Of a DNA stretch of 64,000 nt, positions 3,947-4,975 are shown in pieces. The DNA is from Rhodothermales bacterium (lineage in GTDB: Bacteria > Bacteroidota > Rhodothermia > Rhodothermales > JANQRZ01). The stretch is from NCBI GenBank assembly GCA_965215145.1, contig OZ244038.1:956579-1020578 (forward strand), written 5' to 3'. A program made the translations under genes and the position numbers. The notes under the pieces were generated by a model. That model was given only the letters and a program-made list of their open reading frames with translations. It had not been told where the DNA came from and made no database searches. Numbering within the stretch: position 1 is the stretch's first letter; every line of letters begins with the position of its first letter.

Positions 3947-4975
3947 ATGAAGCCGAACAAGCCGCCCGTGATGCCGCTCCGCAACCGGATCTCCGTGTTC
4001 GCAGTGGAGCGGGGGAACGTCGAGGTGGACGGGCAGGCCCTCGTCGTCACGGACGTCCGCGGCGTGCGGGCACAGCTCCCCGTTGGGGCCTCGGCCGTGC
4101 TGATGCTGGAGCCGGGCACGACGATCACGCACGCCGCCGTCAAGCTCTGCGCCGAGAACCGGACGCTCATCATCTGGACGGGGGAGGCCGGCGTCCGCCT
4201 CTACAGCGCCGGGCAGGAGGGGGCGGCCCACTCGTATCGCCTCCTCCGGCAGGCCCGCCTCGCCCTCGACCCGAAGAGCCGGCTGGCCGTCGCCCGCGAG
4301 ATGTACCGGGTGCGGTTCTACGAGGAGCCCCCGCAGAAGCGCTCCATCGAGCAGCTCCGCGGGATGGAGGGCGCCCGCGTCCGCGCCACCTACCGCCGCC
4401 TCGCCGAGGAGTACGGCGTCGTGTGGGAGGGGCGTAACTACGACCGCTCGGACTGGGGGAGCCAGGACCCCGTGAACCGGGCCCTCTCCGCGGCGAACGC
4501 CTGCCTCTACGGGGTCTGCCACGCCGCCATCCTCATCGCGGGCTACAGCGCCGCGCTCGGGTTCATCCACACGGGCTACCCCCTCGCGTTCGTCCACGAC
4601 CTCGCCGACCTCTACAAGATGGAGCTCGCCGCGCCGACGGCGTTCCGCCTCGCGGCTGAGGACGAGGGCAACCTCGGCATGCGCGTCCGCCACGCCCTCC
4701 GCGACGGGTTCCGCCGCGTCAAGCTCCTGGAGGGGCTCATCCCCGGCATCGAGTCGCTCCTCGACGCAGGGGAGGGCGGGGCCGGGATGCCGGAGGAGCT
4801 GGGCGGGTGCCGGGTCGAGACGGCCGCGCCCGAGGACGCGCCGTGGCAGCGGAAGCCGCGCCTCCCGGACGCCCGCGCCGTCGCCGCCGAGCTCCACGGC
4901 GACCGCCCGCCCACGCCGCCGCGCCCGAAGCCGCCCTCGCCCCTCGACGACGCCGACGACGGCCTGCCCTTCTGA
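3947..4975 (+). CDS. cas1: CRISPR-associated endonuclease Cas1, type I-E, with a C-terminal Pro-rich extension
   Basis: PLRNRISVFAVERGNVEVDGQALVV...PVGASAVLMLEPGTTITHAAVKLCAENRTLIIWTGEAGVRLYSAG is collinear with E. coli Cas1e (YgbT). The product is 342 aa. Confidence 0.95.
   Translation: MKPNKPPVMPLRNRISVFAVERGNVEVDGQALVVTDVRGVRAQLPVGASAVLMLEPGTTITHAAVKLCAENRTLIIWTGEAGVRLYSAGQEGAAHSYRLLRQARLALDPKSRLAVAREMYRVRFYEEPPQKRSIEQLRGMEGARVRATYRRLAEEYGVVWEGRNYDRSDWGSQDPVNRALSAANACLYGVCHAAILIAGYSAALGFIHTGYPLAFVHDLADLYKMELAAPTAFRLAAEDEGNLGMRVRHALRDGFRRVKLLEGLIPGIESLLDAGEGGAGMPEELGGCRVETAAPEDAPWQRKPRLPDARAVAAELHGDRPPTPPRPKPPSPLDDADDGLPF

Follow-up and report, generated by a model that had tools for sequence, protein, structure and literature searches.

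How the Cas1-Cas2 integrase finds its substrates, and which host enzymes shape the ends of prespacers, is only partly solved, and what is known of prespacers comes mostly from E. coli genetics (RecBCD, RecJ, ExoVII, RecG, PriA, DnaQ and ExoT). A type I-E cas1 gene in a 64,000-nucleotide stretch of a Rhodothermales genome (GenBank assembly GCA_965215145.1, contig OZ244038.1, positions 956,579 to 1,020,578 of the forward strand; the whole stretch is referred to here as the window) raises the question in an unusual form: why should an integrase end in the peptide D-D-G-L-P-F, so similar to the C-terminal tip of SSB, the bacterial protein that binds single-stranded DNA? We find that conservation of the tip matches that of the Cas1 catalytic core while the linker that carries it drifts, and that tips of this kind recur in other Cas1e lineages; as far as sequence comparison can be taken, this suggests a direct, previously undescribed hook between the formation of CRISPR memory and host DNA repair. 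The parts of the gene on which the argument turns are given below, in window coordinates.

3947..4975, forward strand: cas1 (type I-E, Cas1e), 342 amino acids plus stop; TIGR03638, PF01867
3971..4762, forward strand: Cas1e catalytic core, amino acids 9-272; extent of the TIGR03638 match
4829..4846, forward strand: PEDAPW segment, amino acids 295-300; alignments A1 and A2
4847..4954, forward strand: variable linker, amino acids 301-336, QRKPRLPDARAVAAELHGDRPPTPPRPKPPSPLDDA; clade identity comparison
4871..4897, forward strand: predicted short helix in the linker, amino acids 309-317, ARAVAAELH; AlphaFold2
4955..4972, forward strand: SSB-type C-terminal tip D-D-G-L-P-F, amino acids 337-342; stop at 4973-4975, right-anchored logo

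The protein scores 347.9 bits against the Cas1e model TIGR03638 (cut-off, 215.6), matching positions 4 to 268 of 269, and E141, H208, D218 and D221 (E. coli numbering), which we take to be the metal-binding and catalytic residues of Cas1, are invariant in a 21-sequence alignment (A1) that contains an E. coli-type sequence (P0103). The G+C content at third codon positions of the cas1 frame is 0.94, and the long open reading frames (ORFs) that face it are of the kind that DNA of 72% G+C usually produces on the other strand. In the GTDB genome collection, the Cas1 genes nearest to this one belong to Rhodothermales and include that of the complete Roseithermus sacchariphilus genome (CP030158; 88% identity). 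The tail reads PPSPLDDADDGLPF and then stops, the ORF ending in HGDRPPTPPRPKPPSPLDDADDGLPF with TGA at 4973-4975; the translation bears out a first-pass annotation of this DNA, which had read codons 4946-4972 as DDADDGLPF ahead of that stop, and its figure of approximately 50 residues past the Cas1e core fits the 42 amino acids that lie beyond PEDAPW (70 lie beyond the TIGR03638 match). The OB-fold domain that binds single-stranded DNA (PF00436) was not found in Cas1, the sole Pfam match of which is Cas_Cas1, and we regard the protein as a mimic of the SSB tip, not as an SSB.

An AlphaFold2 model built from a 14-sequence alignment has a confident core, with a predicted local distance difference test (pLDDT) score of mostly 80 to 94 in the helical domain, and the score falls below 50 for amino acids 322-342, the last 21 residues of the protein. 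Inside the linker, the model places a helix at amino acids 309-317 (block pLDDT of approximately 77 to 81), which may be a second contact element, and the motif LPDAR.VA.E is retained in the closest Rhodothermales relatives only. Ahead of the linker, P295, A298, P299 and W300 are invariant in alignment A2 and nearly so in A1; the PEDAPW segment is common to sister clades without the tip and, in A1, matches by position the proximal C-terminal tail of E. coli-type Cas1.

Approximately 45 of the best 120 homologues, whose tails all differ in sequence, end in xLPF. On a neighbor-joining tree of the core domain, 42 Cas1e sequences make up a Rhodothermales-centered clade, and the tip is kept in 41 of them. 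When these 41 members are anchored at the C terminus, Asp is found at position -5 in 24 and at -4 in 33; position -3 is occupied by Gly (28), Asn (6), Asp (5) or Tyr (2); and the terminal Pro and Phe are invariant, and the Leu at -2 is present in all but one (40/41), down to 58% overall identity. Positions upstream of -5 are unconstrained. Orthologues P0012, P0015 and P0017 end in DDDLPF, and P0010 ends in DDDPPF. A sub-clade with the ends GDGLPF and ANLPF is also recognized. Over all 780 pairs of 40 members, pairwise identity averages 74.8% for the core, 74.5% for the tip (the last six residues) and 33% for the linker, and for the 318 most distant pairs, the corresponding values are 68%, 62% and 24%. 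In 40 clade members, the linker is 28 to 42 amino acids long with a Pro fraction of 0.03 to 0.38, so the Pro-rich linker of the first-pass annotation is real in this protein (10 of the 36 residues at 301-336) but is not a feature of the clade. Since Pro-richness is not conserved, it lies outside the functional signature, and Pro-rich PxxP motifs, considered as a functional element, were rejected because Pro content varies across the clade. Of the SSB-like layout proposed in the same annotation, what stands is a disordered, fast-evolving linker with an invariant acidic x-L-P-F end.

At the level of DNA, the tip codons of seven loci vary synonymously only (GGC/GGT/GGG/GGA, CTG/CTT/TTG, CCC/CCT/CCA and TTC/TTT). 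At six orthologous loci from other assemblies, the stop lies at the identical position with varying stop codons (TGA, TAA and TAG), and cas2 begins 4 nucleotides on; the stop is therefore not an artefact of assembly, a doubt that had been attached to the first description of the tail. The one exception in the clade (P0013, locus L005, from an uncultured Rhodothermales metagenome-assembled genome [MAG]) has lost approximately the last 15 residues of Cas1, tip included (L005 2400-2700), and because cas2 follows directly, we consider this a real truncation and a natural tip-deletion variant. The window and 1.05 Mb of fetched loci together contain 5,319 ORFs of at least 80 amino acids; just 9 of them end in [ILMV]PF, 7 being the Cas1 genes in question. 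Conservation at the level of the core, a drifting linker, synonymous codon changes, predicted disorder and rarity among ORFs lead us to conclude that the tip, which ends a disordered tether, is a short linear motif kept by purifying selection.

Is the motif that of SSB? In its canonical form, the tip reads DDDIPF in E. coli SSB and DDDLPF in Gram-positive SsbA (PMC5872125, PMC5531588), and it acts as a hub for SSB-interacting proteins (PMC5872125, PMC5531588, 10.1101/797431). The window tip fits D-D-D-[IL]-P-F at five of six positions, with the terminal Phe followed directly by TGA. The SSBs of two Bacteroidota species end in DLPF and that of Desulfotalea ends in DVPF (PMC3991886, Table 1); Cas1 tips read xLPF in clades of the Rhodothermales and Bacteroidota type and [VI]PF in clades of the Sorangium type, the comparison with SSB being one at the phylum level only. 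Metagenome contigs were scanned for DDGLPF followed by a stop with a pattern in which Phe was fixed as TTC and Leu as CTN, so that the result is a sample and not a census. At least 105 ORFs were obtained, and 70 nonredundant ORFs of at least 85 amino acids are among the matches listed; these 70 include 9 with the Pfam SSB domain (PF00436), 11 with DUF3127, and 12 of phrog_4932 and 10 of phrog_44, both annotated as single-strand DNA-binding. Further SSB phrogs and Erf, Sak4, UvsX-like and gp2.5-like proteins are also among the matches listed, as is one clear Cas1 fragment (L152). A scan of viral contigs for the Sorangium-type tip, DDEVPF followed by a stop, was likewise a sample with some codons fixed and gave at least 85 nonredundant ORFs among the matches listed, of which 16 have PF00436 and 18, 17 and 8 belong to phrog_18154, phrog_44 and phrog_9002, respectively, all annotated as SSB; RecT-like, Bet-like, RecE-like and Cas4-domain exonuclease families and a primase are listed with them. 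In the whole viral collection, the permuted control DDEVFP-stop, made of the same bases, gave 4 matches versus more than 120. Because both samples consist mostly of SSBs, drawn from several unrelated families, we conclude that both variants of the Cas1 tip are genuine SSB tips, borne here on a non-SSB protein.

Searches for SSB itself nearer to the locus were negative: phmmer with an E. coli SSB query found none in the window and none in 80 related loci. A tblastn search of plasmids with a DDGLPF-ended metagenomic SSB matched only betaproteobacterial plasmid SSBs. Across the loci collected in the two scans (L081-L200 from metagenomes and L201-L320 from IMG/VR), SSB-type tips seem to be a portable module of DNA-metabolism proteins in phages; the Cas4-domain exonucleases that bear them are of the PD-(D/E)XK type, and some metagenomic ORFs (L088, L104, L156, L157, L174 and L194) have an EPWPEPP-like motif approximately 10 to 15 residues before the DDGLPF end.

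The tip is not confined to the Rhodothermales-centered clade. A search of 50%-identity cluster representatives revealed, among the best 150, two further tip-like ends, those of P0136 (...DEDDLPF; 44% identity to the window Cas1) and P0129 (...DEEGIPF; 48% identity). P0136 belongs to a clade of four members (P0136, P0271, P0273 and P0274, ending in DEDDLPF, NEDLPF, HQDLPF and DDDLPF) that is nested in the large PTPWW tail class, whose tails bear PDGFDPDDDPALPTPWW; the ends recorded for clade 2 include DEDDLPF and PDDDLPF. Among relatives of P0129, which are of the Sorangium/Polyangiaceae type, 64 of 120 end in D-D-[DE]-[DE]-[EG]-[VI]-P-F (for example, DDEVPF and EEGIPF), and the [VI]PF-ended set, which includes RefSeq proteins of several Sorangium isolates together with Polyangiaceae MAGs, occupies several blocks of the tree. 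In Sorangium Cas1, the linkers vary through indels and PD[PS][ED]GGVPF is retained. By this comparison, three separately nested lineages of Cas1e, at the least, have conserved or reinvented the tip; because the trees are simple neighbor-joining trees of the core domain, this is a minimum estimate of the independent gains. Whether the tail is conserved in its clade and absent elsewhere, a point raised in the first-pass annotation, can thus be answered in part: the tip is conserved in the clade, but it recurs in two further lineages.

The tails of Cas1e as a whole (homologues P0029-P0095 and P0121-P0508) form discrete motif classes that track the core tree, namely G[DE]xGHR (the E. coli type), PDGFDPDDDPALPTPWW (114 sequences), LWDPxGxxxxGGxNY, STVWDMPWN, DPLGL[WLFMH][ED]GF (13 sequences), DEGEAWA[DN]xxFGxW[ED]DPWK (16 sequences) and EEEWDPFGD (7 sequences). 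The motif DPLGLF among them recalls what we take to be the beta-clamp motif of Pol II, QLGLF. A beta-clamp-binding motif has the form QL[SD]LF or QLxLxL, and this identity was rejected for the tip itself, since the hexapeptide DDGLPF lacks Gln and its penultimate residue is Pro.

What might an SSB tip do on an integrase? We incline, with some reserve, to the reading that DDGLPF of Cas1 is a docking motif of the SSB-tip type and that the tails plug into host SSB-tip-binding proteins for prespacer processing, entering the pockets by which host genome-maintenance proteins recognize SSB. The E. coli Cas1-Cas2 complex has four Cas1 protomers, and each integrase, as Cas1(4)-Cas2(2), would thus display four tails, the same valency as the SSB tetramer. 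Docking would bring end-trimming or unwinding activities to prespacer precursors bound by Cas1-Cas2 or, alternatively, would direct the integrase to gaps and stalled forks marked by SSB. RecG and PriA have been linked to primed adaptation. ExoI and chi, both named in the first-pass annotation, are largely proteobacterial and hence less plausible in Rhodothermales than RecJ, RecQ, RecG and PriA, which, as SSB-tip binders or adaptation factors widespread in bacteria, would be the likeliest. RecJ, a binder of the SSB tip (PMC4846377), does most of the 5'-end trimming of I-E prespacers in E. coli, where RecQ has been proposed as a back-up helicase (PMC9699676), and RecG requires the SSB tip (PMC10164576).

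The composition of the operon bears on this proposal. The window holds a complete type I-E CRISPR-Cas locus, the other features of which are as follows.

2944..3927, forward strand: WYL/WCX-HTH transcription regulator, directly upstream of cas1; Pfam WCX (3.5e-15), HTH_24, WYL
4979..5290, forward strand: cas2 (Cas2e), 103 amino acids, without nuclease fusion; PF09707 (7.7e-23), TIGR01873
5280..8126, forward strand: cas3 (HD nuclease plus helicase); Cas3_HD (4.4e-26), Cas3-like_C_2 (1e-36)
8133..9875, forward strand: cse1/casA; NF007247 and TIGR02547 at E values of approximately 1e-18, under their curated cut-offs
9872..10513, forward strand: putative cse2/casB, by position only (between cse1 and cas7); no Pfam match
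10531..11760, forward strand: cas7e; PF09344 (1.1e-91)
11765..12514, forward strand: cas5e; PF09704 (8.5e-33)
12501..13193, forward strand: cas6e; PF08798 (4.4e-44)
13281..15148, forward strand: CRISPR array, 29-nucleotide repeat CTCCTCCCCGCGCAGGCGGGGATGACCCC, period 61; Tandem Repeats Finder

A distant tip-bearing relative, locus L325, has the same gene order (WYL-cas1-cas2-cas3-cse1-cse2-cas7-cas5-cas6e), the WYL gene lying upstream of cas1 there too, and PF09481 was found on its cse1 orthologue. The product of the cse2 slot has no Pfam match in the window or at the orthologous position in L325 (16543-17223), and on this ground we regard it as a putative, divergent small Cascade subunit. The repeat core has 29 exact matches between 13286 and 15125, so that the array has at least 29 repeats. 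A Pfam and NCBIfam profile search found no Cas4 or DnaQ domain among the operon proteins. Cas2 is without a fused nuclease and there is no Cas4 in the operon; a host nuclease recruited by the peptide would fill the role that a fusion has elsewhere, and recruitment by the tip would be the noncovalent counterpart of the covalent Cas2-DnaQ or Cas4-Cas1 fusions.

The surroundings of the locus may be described briefly. Just upstream of the WYL regulator lie genes for a small protein with an RNase H1 N-terminal (Cauli_VI) domain (468-782) and a 486-amino-acid DUF5131/radical-SAM-like protein (751-2211). Immediately past the CRISPR array, on the minus strand, is a pair of umuD-like (Peptidase_S24) and umuC-like (Y-family polymerase) genes (15279-17318), and beyond these are holA (21749-22981), a DinB_2 protein gene and uvrA (30465-33497). 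A perfect 15-bp tandem repeat, GAGCGCTACGTCTCG, with 15.2 copies and a 100% match, occupies 25916-26143 within an ORF on the minus strand (24566-26488) with Pfam matches to pentapeptide-repeat and DDE-transposase families; a second perfect 15-bp repeat, of 4.7 copies, is found at 52019-52089. Several proteins of the window bear type 9 secretion sorting domains, which accords with an origin in Rhodothermales.

Docking to host SSB-tip binders must be weighed against other explanations for the tip. An acidic tail end on a flexible linker could act on host SSB or its condensates or, in cis, on the basic DNA-binding surface or the 3'-end pocket of Cas1-Cas2, mimicking DNA and so gating the loading of prespacers. 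The proximal tail of E. coli Cas1 already touches the PAM (protospacer-adjacent motif)-side overhang and, in a study of E. coli Cas1-Cas2, is said to cover that overhang and to delay trimming. In SSB, the C-terminal peptide binds to the single-stranded DNA site of the OB fold and, by itself, suffices to enrich enhanced green fluorescent protein in SSB droplets (10.1101/797431). We nevertheless consider such an action unlikely: the same tips occur on unrelated SSB folds, annealing proteins and exonucleases that have no common cis surface, which favors a common external receptor over docking in cis, and three divergent Cas1e backgrounds have gained the same kind of tip. Docking on SSB is, moreover, not really exclusive of docking on SSB-tip binders. 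Less probable still is a tip that serves to dock a different part of the Cas machinery (for example, Cas3 or Cascade in a complex for primed acquisition) and that resembles SSB by coincidence. The order WYL-cas1-cas2-cas3-cse1, with cas1 as the first of the cas genes, is indeed common to the window and the distant L325, and I-E Cas1-Cas2 associates with Cas3 (PMC9699676), but the tip is present on three Cas1e lineages whose Cas partners would diverge as Cas1 has (44-48% core identity), and the exact hexapeptides are those of SSBs.

A C-terminal LPF might also be a ClpXP-type degradation tag that keeps Cas1 scarce, given that the last three residues of Streptococcus mutans SsbA (LPF) suffice for degradation by ClpXP (PMC5143411). 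The same study describes recognition of LPF as strain dependent and LPF as unrecognized by ClpXP in other bacteria (PMC5143411); tips of the Myxococcota type end in VPF or IPF, and the acidic residues conserved at -4 and -5 lie outside an LPF degron. We therefore rate a degron as very improbable, its sole known case being strain specific. Least credible of all, to the point that we accord it almost no weight, is a tail that is a neutrally drifting, low-complexity extension with an SSB-like end acquired by chance. The linker is of low complexity and poorly conserved, and the L005 member of the clade has lost the end of its tail, but the near invariance of L-P-F, the confinement of codon changes in the tip to synonymous ones, the recurrence of the tip in independent lineages and the finding of only 2 non-Cas1 ORFs in 5,319 that end in [ILMV]PF all run counter to drift. 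Random drift, one of the outcomes entertained in the first-pass annotation, is contradicted by the retention of the tip across the clade and, in our view, is already refuted by the conservation data.

Some observations weigh against docking of the SSB-tip type as a general account of the Cas1e tail. The residue at -3, Asp in E. coli SSB, is Gly in 28 of the 41 tip-bearing clade members, although genuine SSBs with DDGLPF exist. Most Cas1e lineages, including the E. coli type (...GDAGHRS), are without the tip, and the best 150 representatives yielded two tip-like ends, so that the tip is an accessory and not a core requirement. Acidic ends are also common in tipless relatives, and acidity alone is consequently not diagnostic.

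In the library searched, no paper that links Cas1 or Cas1-Cas2 with the SSB tail, SSB-Ct (the C-terminal tip of SSB), mimicry or the SSB interactome was found to describe such a tip on Cas1, in agreement with the belief of the first annotator, and none was found to report a CRISPR adaptation protein with an acidic, Phe-terminated, SSB-like tail; no relevant literature was found on the VPF and IPF tip strings. Cas1e and SSB-Ct are each known, and their combination appears to be new. If docking of the SSB-tip type is correct, a conserved and recurrent peptide would provide a physical, sequence-encoded link from the integrase to the SSB interactome, and the question of how host enzymes reach prespacers could be reduced to a peptide of 6 to 9 residues and point mutants thereof. 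It would also mark the SSB tip as a portable module that proteins other than SSB have borrowed. Interactions of the SSB tip are being explored as targets for antibacterials, and the grafting of a host-matched tip might improve Cas1-Cas2 recorders.

A wider proposal, built on the tail motifs, is offered more tentatively, and we would give it less than an even chance of being right. Cas1e tails may be interchangeable docking modules that link the integrase to host replication and repair hubs, the module of the Rhodothermales, some Bacteroidota-type and Sorangium-type lineages being a copy of the host SSB tip. Cas1-Cas2 would then be a four-tailed pseudo-SSB that recruits enzymes of the RecJ/RecQ/RecG/PriA type to make and trim prespacers at single-stranded DNA gaps and stalled forks, the tip would track that of the host SSB (Leu versus Val or Ile at -2), and the other tail motifs (DPLGLxEGF, EAWAxxFGxWxDPWK, PTPWW and LWD...GGxNY) would be hooks to other hubs.

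Comparison with known systems sets these suggestions in context. The Cas1 tip resembles SSB-Ct (...MDFDDDIPF in E. coli; ...DDLPF in Gram-positive bacteria and Bacteroidota) in its location at the extreme C terminus, its Pro-Phe end, its hydrophobic residue at -2 and its acidic residues upstream; a disordered linker, conserved in neither length nor sequence, precedes it, four copies are presumably present per complex, and the hexapeptide DDGLPF itself ends genuine SSBs. It differs in that its carrier is an integrase without an OB fold or homology to SSB and in having Gly, in place of the consensus Asp, at -3 in most members of the clade. The Cas1e tail of E. coli, which ends in ...GDAGHRSS, is likewise a flexible C-terminal extension, the proximal part of which aligns with the PEDAPW segment, but E. 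coli-type tails end approximately 37 to 41 residues earlier and have no acidic x-P-F tip. The Cas2-DnaQ fusions of some I-E systems and the Cas4-Cas1 fusions presumably serve the purpose proposed here, that of bringing a trimming activity to the integrase; in contrast to these, Cas2 is a plain 103-amino-acid protein in the window, and recruitment would depend on a six-residue peptide and host enzymes. In phage T7, gp2.5 (an SSB) and gp4 (the helicase-primase) share acidic, Phe-terminated tails and compete for the same receptor, and gp4 is thus a precedent, like Cas1, for a non-SSB protein with an acidic, aromatic-ended, SSB-like tail. Whereas T7 gp2.5 and gp4 and the tip-bearing Erf, Sak4, RecT, Bet, RecE-like and Cas4-domain proteins are phage replication or recombination proteins, Cas1 is a protein of CRISPR adaptation.

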